A DNA stretch of 64,000 nt from assembly GCF_054482525.1 (NCBI RefSeq), contig NZ_CM137006.1; one strand, given 5' to 3'. Both the position numbers and the translations under genes were made by a program. Below the pieces are notes generated by a model. It did no database searches. It worked only from the letters and a program-made list of their open reading frames with translations, and was not told the origin of the DNA. Below, piece after piece: positions 1,986 through 59,785 of this stretch. Every line of letters begins with the position of its first letter. Position 1 is the first letter of the stretch.

Positions 1986-4508
1986 TTATGCCGGGAGCTC
2001 CGGGGGGAATGCTTCTTCCAGTCGGTTAACCATATTGCCGAGATGGGATGCATCATATTCCATGACGGGGCGTTGCCTGATGATACTGACCACCAGTGGT
2101 TTGATTAACATATTGGTCGCGGCCCGTTGTTGTATACCGGCGGCGAAAATGATCTCCAGAGCATTCTGATCGATAACACGGGCCAGATTCTCGTTCAGAT
2201 TTTCAATCTCATGTCCGGTCAGCAGGAAACTGCCGGCAAGCCATGTCACCTGCTCCTGAATCATTGCCAGAATTTTGACGCGATCTTCTTCAACCAGCGC
2301 TCCGGCAATTTTTCCTGATACAGCGGAGGCAATCATTCCCCCCAGAACACCGCCAACCACACGTCCTGTCAGTGCACCAAATGGTCCCAGTGGACTGAAC
2401 AATATCCCGCCCGCCACTGACCCGACAGCACCACCTGCCACACCGGAAGATGCCACGGCAAGATTCCTGATGAACTGCGCACCGGAGATCCGTCCCCGCA
2501 ACATTTTGATCATGTCAGGGCCGGTTGTGACAGCTACCAGTGCCAGAGATGTTACCAGCGTACCCTTCATTACTTTGTTCAGGGCACTGATATTTCCTGC
2601 ACCGGTCCCCTTCTGAAGAGCCAGTCGGACAGTCGGGCTGGCAGTCGAAAAATCAATGTGCTTCAGCATACCCTGAACAACACTGAGCCGGTGGAGTTGC
2701 TGGGTTGTGACGTAGACAGCCAGTGTGCGGGTGAAGGTTTTTCCTGCCTGGACAGCAGCTGTCTGCAGGGCAGCATCGCGATCGCCGGTGCTGAGCCAGA
2801 AGACCGATGCCGTCAGGGCAAAACTGATCCCTCCGGCCGCCAGACTGACAACCGAACCCTCGGCAATATCATAAGTGACCGATTCGATGGTCCCGAACCG
2901 GGTGATATTACGGGCCTGAGTATAAGTCAGATGTCCCCGACGAATCAGCCGGGACGCTTCTGCGGGATCGGTTACACCGGGTACTTTACCTTCGCGGATC
3001 TTATTCCTCATGGTTTCAACAGCGCCGGCATACTGATCACGGGGGACTTCCAGTTGCATGGGGCCATTATTTCCCATGTAACGATACTGTCCGTTTTGTC
3101 CGTCGAATGCCGCACCGACGCTACGGGCTGCAGTTGAACAATATTTCGTCTGGATTTCTGTTCCGCTGACCAGTCTGTCTGCTCCATTTCTGGCATTATT
3201 ATCACCGAGGATCCGTGCGTTTTTCAGACGGACTCTGTCGACAATATGGTTTCCCCGTTCAGCGGCAAACCCATGTCCCTGCCCTCCGGAAGCAAACATT
3301 TTCTCATTTGTACTCCAGGTTTCCGGCAGTTTCATGAGAATCAGACCATTCGCCGTTGCATCGGAAATAAAGCTGTTGTAAGGGCGTTCATAAATTTCCT
3401 GACACAGTGTTTCTGTTTCGCGACAAAGAGAGGTGCAGTACCATTCCGGATCCAGCTTATGATTTTCCGGGGCATGATGTACTTCTGTCAGCCCGCAGGA
3501 GGCACAGATACGAAGCTCATCCACGTGATGGAATGATACAAAACGGCGACCTTCTGAAAAGGGATACCAGTCACCGCCGTCCAGGCAACGATCGAGAAAA
3601 TCGTCATTCGCTTCCGGTGATAAATTCAGGCGGTTCCGGAAGAGCGTTTTCAGTTCATCAGGTGTGAATGACAGGTTCTCTTTCAACTGTTCGTTAAACC
3701 CTGCCATGTTTCTTTCATACCAGGCATTGTTCAGTAACCAGTTTCCGTCTGCCAGTTCAAATTCCCTCAGCTCTCCCCGGGAAATCCGTTGAGAAATGAG
3801 CGTCAGCCAGATGCGCTCCGTCAGTGAGTCAGGAAGGCTGTAATCGTTTTGCAAACTGGTCAGCCACGATTTACTGTTGAGCACCGGTTGTTCTTCCAGT
3901 GTCTGGCTGATGGCACAGGTCAGTTTTTTCAGCGCCTGGATCTGGCTGGCCGCCCATAGCAGCGTCACTAATGCAGCCAGCCAGTACAACAACCCGCCCC
4001 ACCACATCAGTGACGGTGAAATATCGTACTGTAACGCGATCAATGGTGCGCATGCAGAACACGCCATAAGGAAAAAGGCAGTATAAAAACAGCAGTAATA
4101 CCCGTTAATTTCCTTGCTGATATCTTCTGGTGTGATCCCGTTCTGCTGAATGTTTTTGATCTGCAGGGGAACAGCCAGCAGACCACCGGCGAGAGCGGTG
4201 GTCAGAATAAATTTCACAGAGTCAAAGGTGTGAGCCTCCAGCGCGATATGTTTACCATCAAGTCCCCACATGAAGCTGATGATCATTCCGGCAATCGTCA
4301 GAAATACGCCTGCCAGCCAGCGAATATGGAACAACCGGGTTATGCGTTCGGTGATATAGCCAGCCAGTAAGGCCGGGCCGAACAGACACAGCAATATGAG
4401 CCCTGCCAGCGCAGAAGCCGTGCTGATTAATGCTCTGAACAAAAGGCGAAGAATGGCAAATCCTGCGATCAGCAGGATCAGCGCGCCGACTATCTGTAAC
4501 ATAGTCAC
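1986..4508 (-). CDS. yeeR: YeeR-like inner-membrane protein (long form, 840 aa)
   Basis: The N-terminal ~200 aa contain several hydrophobic helices. There is a Cys/His cluster (ICASCGLTEVHH…WYCTSLC) and a Gly-rich hydrophobic C-terminal region. The first ~500 aa read like K-12 YeeR, and the gene sits directly downstream of the Ag43 gene as yeeR does. Confidence 0.7.
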   Translation of the reverse strand: MTMLQIVGALILLIAGFAILRLLFRALISTASALAGLILLCLFGPALLAGYITERITRLFHIRWLAGVFLTIAGMIISFMWGLDGKHIALEAHTFDSVKFILTTALAGGLLAVPLQIKNIQQNGITPEDISKEINGYYCCFYTAFFLMACSACAPLIALQYDISPSLMWWGGLLYWLAALVTLLWAASQIQALKKLTCAISQTLEEQPVLNSKSWLTSLQNDYSLPDSLTERIWLTLISQRISRGELREFELADGNWLLNNAWYERNMAGFNEQLKENLSFTPDELKTLFRNRLNLSPEANDDFLDRCLDGGDWYPFSEGRRFVSFHHVDELRICASCGLTEVHHAPENHKLDPEWYCTSLCRETETLCQEIYERPYNSFISDATANGLILMKLPETWSTNEKMFASGGQGHGFAAERGNHIVDRVRLKNARILGDNNARNGADRLVSGTEIQTKYCSTAARSVGAAFDGQNGQYRYMGNNGPMQLEVPRDQYAGAVETMRNKIREGKVPGVTDPAEASRLIRRGHLTYTQARNITRFGTIESVTYDIAEGSVVSLAAGGISFALTASVFWLSTGDRDAALQTAAVQAGKTFTRTLAVYVTTQQLHRLSVVQGMLKHIDFSTASPTVRLALQKGTGAGNISALNKVMKGTLVTSLALVAVTTGPDMIKMLRGRISGAQFIRNLAVASSGVAGGAVGSVAGGILFSPLGPFGALTGRVVGGVLGGMIASAVSGKIAGALVEEDRVKILAMIQEQVTWLAGSFLLTGHEIENLNENLARVIDQNALEIIFAAGIQQRAATNMLIKPLVVSIIRQRPVMEYDASHLGNMVNRLEEAFPPELPA

Positions 4509-4622: not shown

Positions 4623-7469
4623 TCAGAAGGTCACATTCAGTGTGGCCTGACCGTTATACCCTTCAGCGCTGCTGCCGCTGACGCTGTGGGCATAACCGGC
4701 CTGAACGCCCAGGGTGATATTTTCCCGGACACGGGCTTCCAGTCCGGCCTGCAGGTCCAGTGACGTGCCATTCCGGGACGGTGAGAACGTCATGTTACTG
4801 CCGGCTGCGGCTGTACCCATGCTCATGTCTCCCCGGGAGCTGAAGGTGCGGATAACAGAAGGCTGTACCCACCAGTTCACAGGCAGTTCACTCACACCGT
4901 GTTTTGTACTGTCGCGCAGGGTGTCACGGGATGAGGTGCCTTCACCAAAGGTCATATCGTTGTGGCTGCCCAGACGGAAACCGGCACGCACATGTTGTGC
5001 ACTGCCATGCCCGAACTTCACATAACCGGCGTTATCCTGGCCGTCATCCAGGGAAAGTCCCTGCCAGGTATAGTGCAGTTGTGGCTCCAGCATCAGGTTG
5101 TCAGTGATACTGAAGGGCAGACCGGTTTCCAGTGAGCCCAGCCAGCCCCAGCCCCGGGCGCGGAAGTCGTTATTGTCCGATGACGCTTTCATGCTGTGGC
5201 GGGTTCCCTGTGCCACAATGTCAGCCCACAGGCCGGAGGACGTGTGTGTCAGATTCAGGTATCCGCCCAGGCTGCCGGCATCATCCCGGACCGTGCCGGC
5301 GCGGGAACCGTCATCATCCTTAACATCAACGGAAGAATGGCCTGCGGCACCATACACCCCTGTCGTCAGAGACATACCGGCAACCTCTGTTCTCAGCAGG
5401 TCACCCTCCAGACGGACGAAGCCATAGCTGCCGCTGCTTTCCGGCGTGGCTCCACGGGCAATACCGCCGTTGTTATCGTGACCGAGATGACCGCCCTGAA
5501 TGCTGAGACGGACGCTGTTATTTTCACCGTTTACACCGGTCTGATGGCTGCGGGAGCCTGCCAGAATCCGATCATGGTCCATTGCCTGTGTCAGCATGGA
5601 TGTATACAGGGGGACTTCAGCACGATAAGCATTTTCACTGCGCAGGTACCAGTCTTCATCGCTGTCACGGTTCAGGGTGTAGTTAAAGGCGCCGGCCTGA
5701 AGCGGGCGACTCAGGGCAAACGCACCTTCTTCTGTGGTGGCGCCATTCTGTGCATCCACAACCCGGATACCCTGTCCGGAGGTTGCCACCCCGAGGTTAC
5801 TGTTTCCGACATTTGTAAACGCAAGCCAGGTTTTGCCGGTTGCCTGACCACCATTAATCACCAGCTGGTCAGAGGTATTGCTGCCATCAAGGCGAACACG
5901 CATATTGATGGTGCCACCCTGACCGGTGAGGTTACTGGTGGTCAGTTTATGGAACGTTACCGGGGAGTCGCCTTTTGCAACAGCACGGCTCAGCGCGGCA
6001 TCCGGTGTCGTCTGATTATCAAAGCGAATCTCCCCTGCGTTAACAATATCGCCGGTACTGACCACATCGCCATTCAGTACCATGCTGGCACCTTTACTGA
6101 GCTGTGTTCTGCCACTCAGACTTCCCCCGGCAGCCAGCGTCAGTGTTCCACGATGTCCGACAGTGGTGTTGCTGGCCAGTCCTCCGGCATTAACCGTAAA
6201 GCTGCCGCCATTTTCCAGCAGCAGTCCGCTGGCCTGACCGGATGTGCCATCAATACTGAACTTACCGCTGGCATTGGTCCCCTCAACAGTGGCACCACTG
6301 TCTGCAATCAGGGCACTACCGGATGTCATGGTGACATCTGTTGCCTTACCACCGGCAGACACTGCCAGGGTTCCGCCGTCATCCACCCGTGTTTTCCAGG
6401 CTGAATGGCCCTCCAGTACATCCAGGCGACCACCGGACTCCAGAACAACACCGTCAGCATTACCGTTTTCCACAGTGAAATTGCCCAGACGGTTGCTGCC
6501 GGTGACGGTTGCCGCCGTACTGGTGACCAGTGCGCCTCCCTGCTTCAGCGTGACATTCGTGGCTGTACCACCGGCGTTCACCTGCAGTTTGCCTTTCTGG
6601 TTAACGGTGGTGAAATCCGCCAGACCACCTTCCTTGACAATCTGCCAGCCGTCACTGTTCACAACAGTGTCAGAGGCTGTACCGCCGTTGTGCACATACT
6701 GGTTACCGCCGTTCAGTGTGGTATCCAGCGCGTAGCCATGTACAGTCTGGTCGCCGCCGGCATAAACCACAGTGGTATTTGCTGTTCCTTCAGCAGCCAC
6801 AATCTGACGACCATTTTCATTGATAGTGGTACGTACGGCATTTCCGCGAACAAACTGCCCGGTATCACCATTTTCTGCATCCGGTCCCCCTTCCGCGCCG
6901 GTATTCACAACCGTGTCGGTTGCCACTGCGCCGGATTTGATGGCCTGCCAGCCCTTCTCATTAATGACGGTACCCGTTGCAATCCCGCCTTCATGTACCC
7001 ACTGCTCACCGCCGTTCAGAGTGGTATTCACTGCCTGCCCCTGAAGGCTCTGTCCGCCTCCGGCACTGATAACCGTGTCTGAAACGCTTCCTCCGGCATT
7101 CACTCTCTGAAGACCACCACCGGTGACAGTAGTGTTGTTGGCGATACCGCCATTTTGTATCCATTGTCCGCCGGTATTGGCCTCGTTATCCGGCCCATAC
7201 TCCAGACCGGTACTGATGGTCATTCCGTTGGCCGTACCGAAGACAATCTGGTTGTCATGATTTGTCAGTGTTCCGCCGCTCACGGTTTCTCCCGCCTGTA
7301 CGACCGTGTCAGCAGCCAGTACCGGGACTGACGTGACAGCAGCAAGAGACAGCGCAACCGCCACACCGGTGCGTTTTCCCCGTGAGCGCGCCAGTTCGGA
7401 AGCCACCACCAGGGTGCCCGTAATGTGATTCCATACCAGCCTGTAGCTGGTGTTCAGATGTCGTTTCAT
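4623..7469 (-). CDS. flu: Antigen 43-family self-associating autotransporter adhesin (948 aa)
   Basis: The track ORF is 4623-7544, but the recognisable Ag43 signal sequence MKRHLNTSYRLVWNH begins at the ATG at 7469. The passenger is Gly/Thr/Asn-rich and repetitive. The C-terminal beta-barrel ends GYNGQATLNVTF. It is shorter than my recollection of K-12 Ag43 (1039 aa), closer to Cah-type variants. Confidence 0.9.
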   Translation of the reverse strand: MKRHLNTSYRLVWNHITGTLVVASELARSRGKRTGVAVALSLAAVTSVPVLAADTVVQAGETVSGGTLTNHDNQIVFGTANGMTISTGLEYGPDNEANTGGQWIQNGGIANNTTVTGGGLQRVNAGGSVSDTVISAGGGQSLQGQAVNTTLNGGEQWVHEGGIATGTVINEKGWQAIKSGAVATDTVVNTGAEGGPDAENGDTGQFVRGNAVRTTINENGRQIVAAEGTANTTVVYAGGDQTVHGYALDTTLNGGNQYVHNGGTASDTVVNSDGWQIVKEGGLADFTTVNQKGKLQVNAGGTATNVTLKQGGALVTSTAATVTGSNRLGNFTVENGNADGVVLESGGRLDVLEGHSAWKTRVDDGGTLAVSAGGKATDVTMTSGSALIADSGATVEGTNASGKFSIDGTSGQASGLLLENGGSFTVNAGGLASNTTVGHRGTLTLAAGGSLSGRTQLSKGASMVLNGDVVSTGDIVNAGEIRFDNQTTPDAALSRAVAKGDSPVTFHKLTTSNLTGQGGTINMRVRLDGSNTSDQLVINGGQATGKTWLAFTNVGNSNLGVATSGQGIRVVDAQNGATTEEGAFALSRPLQAGAFNYTLNRDSDEDWYLRSENAYRAEVPLYTSMLTQAMDHDRILAGSRSHQTGVNGENNSVRLSIQGGHLGHDNNGGIARGATPESSGSYGFVRLEGDLLRTEVAGMSLTTGVYGAAGHSSVDVKDDDGSRAGTVRDDAGSLGGYLNLTHTSSGLWADIVAQGTRHSMKASSDNNDFRARGWGWLGSLETGLPFSITDNLMLEPQLHYTWQGLSLDDGQDNAGYVKFGHGSAQHVRAGFRLGSHNDMTFGEGTSSRDTLRDSTKHGVSELPVNWWVQPSVIRTFSSRGDMSMGTAAAGSNMTFSPSRNGTSLDLQAGLEARVRENITLGVQAGYAHSVSGSSAEGYNGQATLNVTF

Positions 7470-48992: not shown

Positions 48993-50649
48993 GATCGTAT
49001 CCCTGTCCCCCAACATTCAGCCAAGCCTTCACGAGCCTTCCTTTCGAGATATAGACTTCTTTGTCGACTGTTTCGACCTGAAACTGAAAGCCATCGTCTT
49101 CCGGGTATTGACGAGCGTGATTGATAGCATGTCGGTAAGGGTCAAGCTCAGTATCATCAAATGTTGGAATATCCTTGCCAGCAGGTTCGGCTTGTTTCAG
49201 GGCATCAAAGAATTCTGTTGCAGAAGTGAATTTTGCGGCAACGGCATCCCGTAATACAGATGAATACCAGTGCTGGCTGTTTAGCATGTTGTCCTGTACT
49301 TTCTCCAGACTCTTTGGCGACATGCGCATACCGCTAAATAAGTGCCAGGCGACAAGGCCCAGAGTATGAACATCTTGCTGAAAAGGCGTAAGCTCGCCCT
49401 TATCAAGCATGTCTTTTACGTGGACTGCACCTACGGATAAAAGCTTACGGTAATCGCCAACCGTTCCGGCTGGCTGGTGGTAAGCCGAAATAAAGTTCGA
49501 AAGAGCAACTTCTTTTGAAGGTGAAATCCACAGACTGTGATCGGCGACATCCCTGTGCGCAATTTTCATCTCATGGAGATCACTAAACTTTGCAATGAGC
49601 AGTTTCACCACATTCAAGCGGTCCATATCAGAAAAGTTCTTACCATATTTTCCGATAAACTCATTAAACCGGACATGACCCGGCGGAACTTCGTAGACTT
49701 CGCTATACTCGGCCGTCACCTCGTCTTTCTGAAAACTCGTCAAAGACCTGAGACAGTGGTTATACAGGTCACGATTCTGGTGATTGATGTGCTGTAACAC
49801 TTCGCGCTCACGTGAAACAATCTGAGCTCGTCCTTCCGGGGTATTCGCTTTCGTTCCCGTTATATTTCTAAAATTCCATACTCTGAGTAGCGCTTCGCTG
49901 TTCGTTGATATCTCAGATTTTGCCAGATATTCTCGATACACCTTTTTAGGATGTTCGAAAATCATATCATTAGCTTCATAGCCATTAACTCTCAAGGCTT
50001 TTGGTGCCGTCTGAGGCCCTAGGAACAAATCATCGAAAAGATGGAAATCCTTGTTAAGAACCTTGGTAGCTGGGTGCGGTTTGAAATAGTTATTGAAGCT
50101 CCCGCGATCGGCAAACTTCAGGAAATCTTTTAACGAGATCGTATGGCGCCGTTGTTCCTCCGGCAGCGCGCTGAAATCTGCATTGCCGGTCATCACAACA
50201 AAAAAATGAACAATCGGGATATAGCCTTTGTTCGTAAAACGGTCTACCAGACGCTTGAGTTTTTTGTCCAGCATGAATTTTTTGCTACGAGTCACGCTTA
50301 CTGGCGAGCGCCCCATGTTCTTATCACCTTTAAACCAAGTATCTCCGCGTGCGGTTACAGGCTGATGGTTCCAGTCTTTCAGTTCAACAATGATCACGTT
50401 GCAGTGTGTTACAATAACTAAATCGAATTCCCCCTCTTTTTTTGCCTCAACAAATCGAAAACCTGCATAACCTTTCCAAGGGAACATTTCATTGCCGATA
50501 AAACCATAGCTTTTTAGCTGCTCACTAATTGAACCGCTACGGAAAGGCTTGTCAGGCTTAGATACGTTGACTGAAAAAGCAGCTTTTATTTTCTCGATAG
50601 CCAATACTTCCTGTTCTTGTAAGCCACCATCCCACATTTCTACTTCCAA
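48993..50649 (-). pseudogene. N-terminal 552 codons of the IS-split gene: NERD domain plus degenerate kinase-like domain plus start of second kinase domain
   Basis: TTG start at 50649, 7 nt after aaggag (alternative ATG at 50637). NERD signature EGEFDLVIVTHCNVIIVELKDW…GRSPV. The kinase-like segment IAHRDVADHSLWI lacks the usual Asn and DFG Asp. The frame runs into IS629 after …LNVGGQGYD. Confidence 0.85.
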
Positions 50650-58183: not shown

Positions 58184-59386
58184 TTATTTATTCACAATTT
58201 GAGACATCACATAATCCGCCCATGCCTGCATCATCGGTACACGCTGCTCCAGTAGATCAGTACGATGATATGCCGCCTCAACCTTATTTTTCAGCGTATG
58301 AGCGAGCGCCCTTTCCGCCAGATCCCGCGAATACCCCTGTTCGCTACACCAGTCCCTGAATGTTGAGCGAAAACCATGTGCCGTGGCAACTCGCCCCGGA
58401 ATGTCACTGACGGCTTTCTTTTTACGCAGAAAACTTGTCAACACCATATCGGAAAGGATCTGCTGCTTTCTGGGTGAAGGGAACACCAGTTCATCATGCA
58501 GGCCACGTATATTTTCCAGAATGTAAATAGCCTGCCGGGATAAAGGAACACGATGCTGTAGCCTAGCTTTCATTCTTTCTGCAGGTATAGTCCATACCCG
58601 CTTATGAAAATCAATTTCAGCCCAGCGCATTCCCCTGGCTTCGCCCGAGCGAGTTGCTGTAAGTATCACCATTAATAACAGTGCGCGGGTAACATTATAA
58701 GGTTCATCGGTATACACACTGGTCGCCACAAAAAGCGGTAACTGCCTCCAGGGCATTGCGGGTTGGTGTTCATCACGTCCTCTTGTCTGCTGAGGAAGCA
58801 AATGGTCAACCACATCAACAGGATTTGCTACACAAAAACCGTGCGCCCATCCCCACTGCATAACAACATGAATGCGCTGTTTAACCCGGCTTGCCGTTTC
58901 TGACAAGGTTAACCAGACTGGACGCAGTGTTTCTGCCACGTCCGCAGCCGTAATCGAATCCAGCGTTTTTGCTCCCAGTTGAGGAAACGCGTAATTCTCA
59001 AGCGTCGATAACCACTGCCTTACATGCTTTGGATTTTCCCATCCAGGAGACAGTTCTGCATGTACACGCCTGGCTGCATCGGCAAATGTTGGGATAGCGA
59101 CTTTCTCAGATTCAGCCTTTTTAATCTCCAGAGGATCATCACCTGCAGCAAGTTGCTCTCGCATTATCCGGGCAGTACGTGCAGCTTCAGCAATACTGAC
59201 CTCTGGGTAAGTTCCCAATCCAGCATTACGTCTTTTTTGTGTCACCGGACTTACATAACGAAAAACCCATTTCCCCCGCCCCTTTACTGAAGAAGGATGA
59301 AGGGTCAGTCCGGTAATTCCCCCATGGGGCAATGGTTTGTCATCAGGTTTGATATGTCTTGCTTTCGTATCCGTCAATACTGCCAT
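58184..59386 (-). CDS. int: P4-type tyrosine recombinase (island integrase), apparently intact
   Basis: 400 aa. The N-terminal arm-binding region reads MAVLTDTKARHIKPDDKPLPHGG…. The catalytic region carries TATRSGEAR, AHGFRSTFRDW and HTLKNKVEAAYHRTDLLEQR (R…HxxR…Y). Its 5-prime end faces the att repeats. Confidence 0.9.
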   Translation of the reverse strand: MAVLTDTKARHIKPDDKPLPHGGITGLTLHPSSVKGRGKWVFRYVSPVTQKRRNAGLGTYPEVSIAEAARTARIMREQLAAGDDPLEIKKAESEKVAIPTFADAARRVHAELSPGWENPKHVRQWLSTLENYAFPQLGAKTLDSITAADVAETLRPVWLTLSETASRVKQRIHVVMQWGWAHGFCVANPVDVVDHLLPQQTRGRDEHQPAMPWRQLPLFVATSVYTDEPYNVTRALLLMVILTATRSGEARGMRWAEIDFHKRVWTIPAERMKARLQHRVPLSRQAIYILENIRGLHDELVFPSPRKQQILSDMVLTSFLRKKKAVSDIPGRVATAHGFRSTFRDWCSEQGYSRDLAERALAHTLKNKVEAAYHRTDLLEQRVPMMQAWADYVMSQIVNK

Positions 59387-59545
59387 ACGCTAATTCCCGT
59401 CACTCTGGTATGCCATCCAGTATGCCATTAGTCTCTCGCTTCACTAAGAATACATTAGATAATATCGGACAACAAAAAGTGTAATACATTGTTTATAATG
59501 AAATTATATAACACCCCTGGATTAAGTCAGATTTATTTCAGGCGG

Positions 59546-59606
59546 TCCCCCTCACCGCCATATTCAAAGAAGAGCTCGTACGAAAGTGCGAGCTTTTTTT
59601 TCGCAT
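59546..59606 (+). repeat. att-type direct repeat copy 1: tRNA-Ser 3-prime end (…ccctcaccgcca) plus terminator hairpin
   Basis: tccccctcaccgccatattcaaagaagagctcgtacgaaagtgcgagcttttttttcgcat. Positions 59547-59587 are identical to 59727-59767. No tRNA body lies upstream. Confidence 0.7.
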
Positions 59607-59725
59607 ATTGCACTCCAGGGGGGATGAGAAGCCCCGACCGGGGTTCGACAACTGGCGCAGCCAGTTGGACAGACCACGAACGCAGTGAGTGGGCTGCCCG
59701 CAGGGCGAGCGAAGCGAGTCAATCC

Positions 59726-59785
59726 CCCCCCTCACCGCCATATTCAAAGAAGAGCTCGTACGAAAGTACGAGTTTTTTTTCGCAT
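59726..59785 (+). repeat. att-type direct repeat copy 2: tRNA-Ser (serW) 3-prime end plus its terminator
   Basis: aatccccccctcaccgcca followed by the ctcgtac-gaaa-gtacgag hairpin and T8. It lies exactly 180 bp from copy 1, and there is again no complete tRNA upstream. Confidence 0.7.

Follow-up and report, generated by a model that had tools for sequence, protein, structure and literature searches.

A duplicated tRNA-Ser 3' end beside a genomic island, read as a native RtT repeat of the serW–clpA spacer

Introduction

Why should the 3' end of a tRNA-Ser gene, together with its terminator, occur twice within 180 bp beside an integrase gene? The question is raised by a stretch of 64,000 nucleotides, which was analysed as a whole and is called the window below. 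A reading made from its letters alone (the sequence-only reading) had taken both copies for att-like sites and had offered three origins for them: tandem integration with a second element reduced to about 120 bp, a miniature non-autonomous element using the same integrase site, or an uncharacterised small repeat inserted in an att fragment.

We conclude, with a probability of roughly 90%, that the 180-bp period represents 1.33 copies of the RtT tRNA-linked tandem repeat, native to the serW–clpA spacer, with the attR of an island at its left edge. On this reading serW holds no second or miniature island, and a single island whose attR adjoins a native, annotated RtT element takes the place of a false lead. 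Membership of RtT is already known here, the family being described and routinely annotated, and the island attachment site is published; the finding is therefore already known. Beyond the locus itself, RtT segments that track the T-stem and acceptor strand of their cognate tRNA-Tyr or tRNA-Ser across many genera are a modest lead on a poorly understood RNA.

The repeat and its filler

Positions 59547-59600 and 59727-59780 form a direct repeat of 54 nt with 96% identity and a spacing of 180 bp. Its first 41 bases (59547-59587) are identical between the copies, well above chance expectation, and the copies can be followed through T8-CGCAT to 59606 and 59785, which gives a repeat length of 54-60 nt. 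Both open with CCCCCTCACCGCCA, followed by a hairpin and a T-run, and alignment with RM14723 and K-12 bears out the earlier view that each consists of the serW 3' end and a terminator-bearing trailer.

Between the copies lies a GC-rich, structured filler of 120 nt (59607-59726). At 59638-59648 it holds CCGGGGTTCGA, taken in the sequence-only reading for one half of a split tRNA-Ser T-arm. The serW T-arm proper, as found in the island-free RM14723 and K-12 loci, is GGGGG-TTCGAAT-CCCCC, so that GGGGTTCGA is an exact 9-mer match. The T-arm sequence picks up again at 59721 with AATCCCCCC...TCACCGCCA, and AATCCCCCCCC-TCACCGCCA is present in the filler from that position. The closing helix and the 7-bp hairpin proposed for the filler both appear in the minimum-free-energy fold, which pairs GGGGGGAT (59618-59625) with ATCCCCCC (59722-59729) and 59649-59656 with 59660-59667; two 14-mers noted as similar agree at 11 of 14 positions. 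The features of the locus are collected in Table 1.

Table 1. Coordinates of the island end, the RtT unit and the neighbouring chromosome in the window
Feature	Position	Strand	Basis or remark
Island integrase gene, tyrosine recombinase, 400 aa	58184..59386	-	Last island gene, adjoins attR; ORF and Pfam
Island attR, with 14-bp core CCCCCTCACCGCCA (59547-59560, last 14 nt of serW)	59541..59560	+	Identity to island-free chromosome begins at 59547
serW trailer copy 1, native chromosome	59561..59606	+	Aligns with sequence directly 3' of serW in RM14723 and K-12
Intrinsic-terminator hairpin in trailer copy 1	59566-59581 paired with 59586-59601, into T8	+	Computed fold
RtT element: GC-rich core and serW pseudo-3' end	59604..59740	+	Rfam RF00391 and RefSeq annotation
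RtT closing helix, 59618-59627 paired with 59719-59729	59618..59729	+	Fold, RNAalifold
Hairpin P1: AGCCCC (59630-59635) with GGGGTT (59640-59645), loop GACC (59636-59639)	59630..59645	+	Folds
Hairpin P2: CAACTGGC-GCA-GCCAGTTG	59649..59667	+	Fold; compensatory changes
Hairpins P3 (59674-59692) and P4 (59693-59710)	59674..59710	+	Ser-type units; P3 holds the first of the similar 14-mers
Second 14-bp core copy, the serW pseudo-3' end closing the RtT unit; not an island junction	59727..59740	+	Occupies the equivalent position in island-free RM14723
serW trailer copy 2 with intrinsic terminator	59741..59785	+	Terminator-like site 59747-59780; collinear with the K-12 serW trailer beside the CRISPR remnant
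Remnant CRISPR type I-F array, 2 repeats and 1 spacer; neighbour outside the repeat	59783..59870	-	Rfam CRISPR-DR4
clpA, chromosomal flank	60084..62375	-	ORF; named clpA in homologous loci

In the folds, the closing helix is formed by base-pairing of the 5' G-run with the T-stem 3' strand copy and the first part of the acceptor 3' strand, and hairpin P1 includes the T-arm 5' half named above. A terminator scan flags trailer copy 2 only, and copy 1 has the same hairpin in the fold; we put this difference down to the tail rule of the scan. Weak Rfam matches to MicC (59505-59609), Thr_leader and Leu_leader were rejected as terminator look-alikes far below threshold. On the minus strand, at the attR-proximal island end and upstream of the integrase start at 59386, a sigma-70-like promoter (CTGACT-16-TATAAT, 10/12) lies at 59503-59530.

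The CRISPR remnant consists of an intact repeat at 59843-59870 and a degenerate one at 59783-59810 (Rfam CRISPR-DR4, 50.1 and 29.7 bits). The repeats themselves are the same in K-12 and RM14723; the 32-nt spacer between them (59811-59842) is unlike the one found at the same place in those two genomes.

The filler belongs to the RtT family

The Rfam model RtT (RF00391) matches 59604-59740 over its full length (model positions 1-130) with 41.3 bits and an E value of 4.4e-06, just below the gathering score of 45. The filler (59607-59726) is 100% identical to a region of RM14723 that RefSeq/PGAP annotates as 'RtT sRNA'. A blastn search with its 120 nt hit 3,677 of the 5,426 complete E. coli genomes searched, with a best-match identity of at least 99% in 941, and among the matches listed the best one carries the RefSeq label 'RtT sRNA' in most of 40 genomes. 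The filler and the 3' end copy that follows it are thus an RtT element, and a repeat that RefSeq annotates on the identical sequence does not deserve the name uncharacterised. One unit is made up of a serW trailer of ~46 nt with an intrinsic terminator, a structured GC-rich core of ~120 nt and a repeat of the final 14-20 nt of serW.

Island-free loci and the number of units

In RM14723, which has no island at this place, the order is cydC-aat-infA-tRNA-Ser-RtT-clpA. From 59547 rightwards the window is collinear with it through the trailer, the filler (100% identity), the second 3' end copy, the second trailer, the two CRISPR repeats and clpA; to the left of 59547 the window holds island DNA, whereas RM14723 holds the body of serW. 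The unit of RM14723 begins after serW and ends ...CCCCCCCTCACCGCCA, and that of the window is the same, but the island separates it from serW.

The number of units at a locus varies. K-12 serW is followed by a single trailer and 0 RtT units, serW of RM14723 by 1, as in the window, and the island-free ESBLEC_MG32 has 2 between serW and clpA. Elsewhere in K-12, 3 units of 181 bp stand behind serX (ghrA-serX-RtTx3-ycdU), and the 178-bp units of tyrT/tyrV occur once in the tyrT-tyrV spacer and 3 times after tyrV. The classical description of tyrT gives ~3.14 repeats of 178-bp units, and this repeated sequence reportedly yields the rttR/RtT RNA (Bosl and Kersten 1991, as cited by others). The K-12 annotation of rttR (b4425), 171 nt long, begins 7 nt downstream of tyrV, and its 3' boundary coincides exactly with the CCA of the first pseudo-3' end. 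A junction query running from the RtT end through the trailer into the CRISPR repeat is covered in 1,028 of the 5,426 complete E. coli genomes, and the serW–clpA spacer carries RtT natively in about 19% of them. Unequal homologous recombination between the 60-bp segments of trailer and 3' end, or conversion between them, would change the number of units.

Compared with the RtT/rttR units of tyrT-tyrV, the window has the same kind of tandem unit (tRNA trailer, GC-rich core and copy of the tRNA 3' end) with a period of 178-181 bp. Ser and Tyr units align over common motifs, GATGAGAAGC...GACC...GTTCGA ... CCCG.AGGGCGAG ... AATCC, and share the closing helix and a full-length Rfam match. Unlike them, the window unit is tied to tRNA-Ser(GGA) and not to tRNA-Tyr, its T-stem-related segments read GGGG/CCCC instead of AAGG/CTTC, its central hairpins are dissimilar with an extra one of ~10 nt, its trailer contains an intrinsic terminator, a feature absent from the Tyr units, and it falls just under the Rfam gathering threshold. 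The serX array of K-12 is much closer: the tRNA is identical, the trailer nearly so, the core is 94% identical and the RefSeq annotation is the same. It differs in its locus, in having 3 units against 1, and in ~6% substitutions, some of them in the P3 stem.

Small differences were also seen between copies. At 59565 and 59745 both trailers of the window read TATTCAAAG, whereas RM14723, K-12 serW and the K-12 serX units have a T at that position (TATTTAAAG) and the second RM14723 copy reads TCTTTAAAG; ETEC1738 has one trailer copy of each version there. The variant shared by the two window copies hints at conversion between them. The C-run of the pseudo-3' end (59724-59731 in the window) counts 8 C here and 6 in ETEC1738, while RM14723 and the K-12 serX units have 7, like the real tRNA (compared at about 3120-3126 of locus L001 and about 49264-49269 of locus L006). 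Its variable length indicates, therefore, that the pseudo-3' end is a copy without the length constraint of a tRNA.

The island and its junctions

The ORF at 58184-59386 contains the Pfam domains Arm-DNA-bind_3, Phage_int_M and Phage_integrase, and its near-identical counterpart in ETEC1738 bears the annotation tyrosine-type recombinase/integrase; the integrases of OI-43/48 have been described as putative members of the P4 family (PMC3064760). ETEC1738 is the nearest complete genome, with 98.6% identity over 59300-60100. Its island extends for ~91 kb from serW to the integrase gene and carries ter, ure and iha genes, IS elements and a CbtA/YeeU module. At the left junction it reads ...GAATCC-CCCCCTCACCGCCA-GATTATAAGC..., and at and around the right junction it equals the window. 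Since CCCCCTCACCGCCA is found at both junctions, the direct repeat of the island is these 14 bp. ARAGORN found no tRNA gene across the whole window, and the intact serW must therefore lie outside it; as had been anticipated, it would stand at the far end of the island, and in ETEC1738 serW is found ~91 kb leftward.

The same 14-bp direct repeat, TGGCGGTGAGGGGG, has been published for OI-43/OI-48 and for SRL-PAI, and no integration sites other than serW and serX are published for this family of islands (PMC3064760). The resemblance to the att sites of OI-43/OI-48 (SpLE1) and SRL is close: 59547-59560 equals the published repeat exactly and adjoins a tyrosine-recombinase integrase gene, and the island of the near-identical ETEC1738 has the ter, ure and iha content. 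The second copy departs from them, 59727-59740 sharing only the 14-bp core and the right flank, with RtT and not a tRNA T-arm on its left.

Only 59547-59560 unites a tRNA 3' end repeated at both island ends with an adjacent integrase gene. It is the attR core of an OI-43/SpLE1-type island, and the DNA from 59561 on is native. An island of this type, ~90 kb long and carrying tellurite resistance, urease and iha, has integrated site-specifically into the true serW 3' end; as a consequence the first 3' end copy is the attR core, and all DNA to its right is unchanged chromosome. Around CCCCCTC (7 nt), attR has a perfect inverted repeat formed by GGCGGT of the island (59541-59546) and ACCGCC (59554-59559), which, judged from sequence, may represent the core-type integrase sites of attP.

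The layout of island end, attR, trailer and RtT occurs in 717 of the 5,426 genomes, at serW or serX. A chimeric query that joins RtT and the 14-bp core to the island left end was covered to at least 80% in none of the 5,426 complete E. coli genomes, and among the matches listed the island left end adjoins a real tRNA-Ser every time. Of the two att-like copies first proposed, the left one stands as attR; the right one, 59727-59740, is nowhere an island junction in these genomes.

Origin of the second tRNA 3' end

The three origins first proposed all involve integration, and they do not survive comparison with island-free genomes, as the arrangement is present in RM14723, with a filler that is 100% identical, and in ESBLEC_MG32, with two units. 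The sequence-only reading had itself named an unchanged arrangement in an island-free genome as the finding that would count against it, and the alignment it proposed, run with RM14723, shows exactly that. This architecture also recurs after serX and tyrT/tyrV in K-12 and behind tRNA-Tyr and tRNA-Ser in about 100 other species. That a second island once lay between the att copies and decayed to ~120 bp deserves next to no credence, even though two copies of the 14-bp att core stand in direct orientation beside an integrase gene: the identical unit occurs in island-free genomes with the intact serW immediately upstream, its filler is a conserved structured family spread behind tRNA-Tyr and tRNA-Ser, the repeat spans 60 bp including the trailer and so reaches beyond the core, and in none of the 5,426 complete E. 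coli genomes did the chimeric query find the second copy fused to an island left end. It is also very improbable that the 180-bp unit is a miniature non-autonomous CIME-like element, mobilised by the island integrase via the serW att core. Units occur at tRNA-Tyr and Ser(GCT) too, outside the serW/serX sites published for the island (PMC3064760), their ends are fitted to whichever tRNA they follow, many of the genomes that carry them lack an island at the tRNA concerned, and the arrays are perfectly periodic including the trailer, as unequal crossing-over predicts. These points outweigh the direct att core copies on either side of the unit, its clean presence/absence polymorphism between K-12 and RM14723 and the frequency with which integrative elements adjoin RtT arrays. 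A CIME-like element would have the core only as its flanking repeat and would use only the sites of the integrase; the repeat found here is 54-60 bp long and includes the trailer. Since no island sits at the second copy in the 5,426 complete E. coli genomes, the RtT core matches none of 50,697 phage records, the 15 matching records in a plasmid collection are mostly Mb-sized or mislabelled chromosomes, and the RtT arrays on 13 IMG/VR contigs lie, in 12 cases, close to an end of the sequence examined, neither tandem integration nor a mini-element is supported.

If the serW 3' flank had simply been duplicated locally, without function and with arbitrary DNA as filler, no mobility would be needed at all. 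Copy number is free between 0 and 3, the C-run of the pseudo-3' end ranges from 6 to 8 and a terminator precedes the unit, all of which agree with such an origin. We nevertheless regard it as highly unlikely, because the core is kept across Enterobacterales and Pseudoalteromonas with compensatory changes and with segments matched to the tRNA, and because the tyrT-linked member is a detected RNA according to the rttR annotation and to Bosl and Kersten (1991) as cited by others. A native RtT repeat, into whose cognate tRNA gene one island has integrated, remains our preferred reading.

The split T-arm follows the cognate tRNA

The split T-arm was compared with the true serW T-arm above and recurs in the family as a whole. 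One genome per species was scanned with the pattern GRTGAGAASCNNNGACYNNNGTTCRA, which fixes RtT-specific motifs and may miss other branches; at least 120 loci with at least 182 RtT-like hits were found in about 100 species. Among the 182 hits listed, 81 lie downstream of a Tyr(GTA) gene, 59 of a Ser(GGA) gene and 13 of a Ser(GCT) gene on the same strand, so that a cognate tRNA precedes 153 of them; 29 have none within the locus. As 23 of these 29 lie within ~460 nt of the start of the 8-kb block, their upstream context was cut off. The first unit begins ~60 nt after the tRNA and later ones follow at ~165-180 nt, again among the hits listed. Within the same set, Tyr(GTA) and Ser(GGA) are linked to RtT in Enterobacterales and Ser(GCT) in Pseudoalteromonas, the ten Ser(GCT) loci listed being all from that genus (L012, L014, L017, L026, L042, L047, L078, L082, L109 and L126), and all the tRNAs concerned (Tyr, Ser) are class II. 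In the literature we found no description of the restriction to Tyr and Ser or of the Pseudoalteromonas Ser(GCT) branch, a restriction to be read with the reach of the scan pattern in mind.

Where the pattern leaves positions free, and in the 8 nt that precede it, the sequence tracks the T-stem of the upstream tRNA. Behind tRNA-Tyr with the T-stem GAAGG/CCTTC, the 5' segment is GGGAAGG, the second CTTC and the third AAGG; the corresponding segments are GGGGGG, CCCC and GGGG for the Ser T-stem GGGGG/CCCCC, and GGCGGG, CCCG and CGGG for the Ser T-stem CGGGG/CCCCG. In a Ser(GCT) unit of L109 (Pseudoalteromonas), CCCTCCTTCTC, which comprises the 3' strands of T-stem and acceptor stem, has its complement in the 5' segment GAGAAGGAGGG, with 11 of 11 positions agreeing. 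The split T-arm is a real property of RtT, found throughout the family.

Structure and a possible role as RNA

The window unit folds with -77.1 kcal/mol (z = -4.76). In an RNAalifold analysis of 48 units, 20-22 sequences carry GC<->AU double changes at two pairs of the closing helix and P1 (GAA-S-CNN/NNG-G-TTC) has 19-21 double changes, those of the two helices being GC<->AU or CG<->UA, raw counts in both cases that ignore kinship. The paired triplets of P1 switch together, from TTC/AAG in Tyr-type to CCC/GGG in Ser-type units. Because MAFFT misaligns the variable central hairpins between Tyr and Ser units, the mixed alignment gave the outer helices only, and the inner ones were tested on Ser-type units alone. 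P2 has compensatory changes at four pairs in 32 Ser(GGA)-type units from different species, and P3 has 6, 21 and 15 double changes at its pairs in 32 Ser-type units, kinship being ignored for both; P4 is almost invariant and thus uninformative on covariation. Conserved structure with covariation, counted in this way regardless of kinship, is accordingly found in the closing helix, P1, P2 and P3, and covariation support for RtT helices has been reported with R-scape/CaCoFold (PMC8250186; bioRxiv 10.1101/2020.02.04.933952). Repeated copying out of the tRNA gene, and not selection for a helix in RNA, could account for part of this covariation with the tRNA.

In an RtT transcript, the 5' G-run would pair with the copied T-stem 3' and acceptor 3' strands to give a continuous helix with a free NCCA tail, much like the minihelix of a tRNA acceptor and T-arm. 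Both have a continuous helix of 8-11 bp on the T-stem 3' and acceptor 3' strands, followed by the discriminator base and CCA, and the RtT helix co-varies with the cognate tRNA. They differ in what the helix encloses, an insert of ~95 nt with several hairpins in RtT against a T-loop of 7 nt. Enzymes that process tRNA ends would trim such an RNA at the CCA of the pseudo-3' end, as the coordinates of K-12 rttR suggest. RtT units might then be pseudo-tRNA 3' domains maintained by selection, each co-evolving with its own tRNA and standing only behind class II (long-variable-arm) tRNAs, the split T-arm mimicking an acceptor/T-arm minihelix; we put this forward tentatively and consider it rather less probable than not. 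If true, it would mean that RtT could recruit, or compete for, enzymes of tRNA end processing or modification and is not a by-product of duplication.

Release of a stable RNA from a tRNA precursor is reportedly known for the tyrT-linked unit only, as far as the rttR annotation and the literature as cited extend. For the serW-linked unit an RNA function is extrapolated from tyrT, because the strong upstream terminator and the island argue that little RNA is made here. Cut off from the serW promoter by the island and placed behind a terminator, the unit is probably poorly expressed in this strain, if it is expressed at all.

RtT arrays and the calling of island boundaries

RtT arrays place extra tRNA 3' ends beside real att sites and can pass for tandem att sites or degraded islands when boundaries are called. 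Provirus calls in IMG/VR likewise extend into RtT arrays. In the IMG/VR provirus L130 (6152-8200) the array lies just beyond the integrase gene and attR, the same layout as in the window. There the call takes in four RtT units of 166 bp, which probably belong to the host. The 13 IMG/VR contigs with RtT arrays contain no tRNA genes. An attR-like junction, with a tRNA-Ser 3' end lacking the tRNA body and followed by the trailer and RtT, was seen in L028 (Klebsiella sp., about 6360-6700), L118 (Kluyvera, about 780-900) and L130; it is preceded by an intact integrase gene in L130 and by an integrase fragment in L028.
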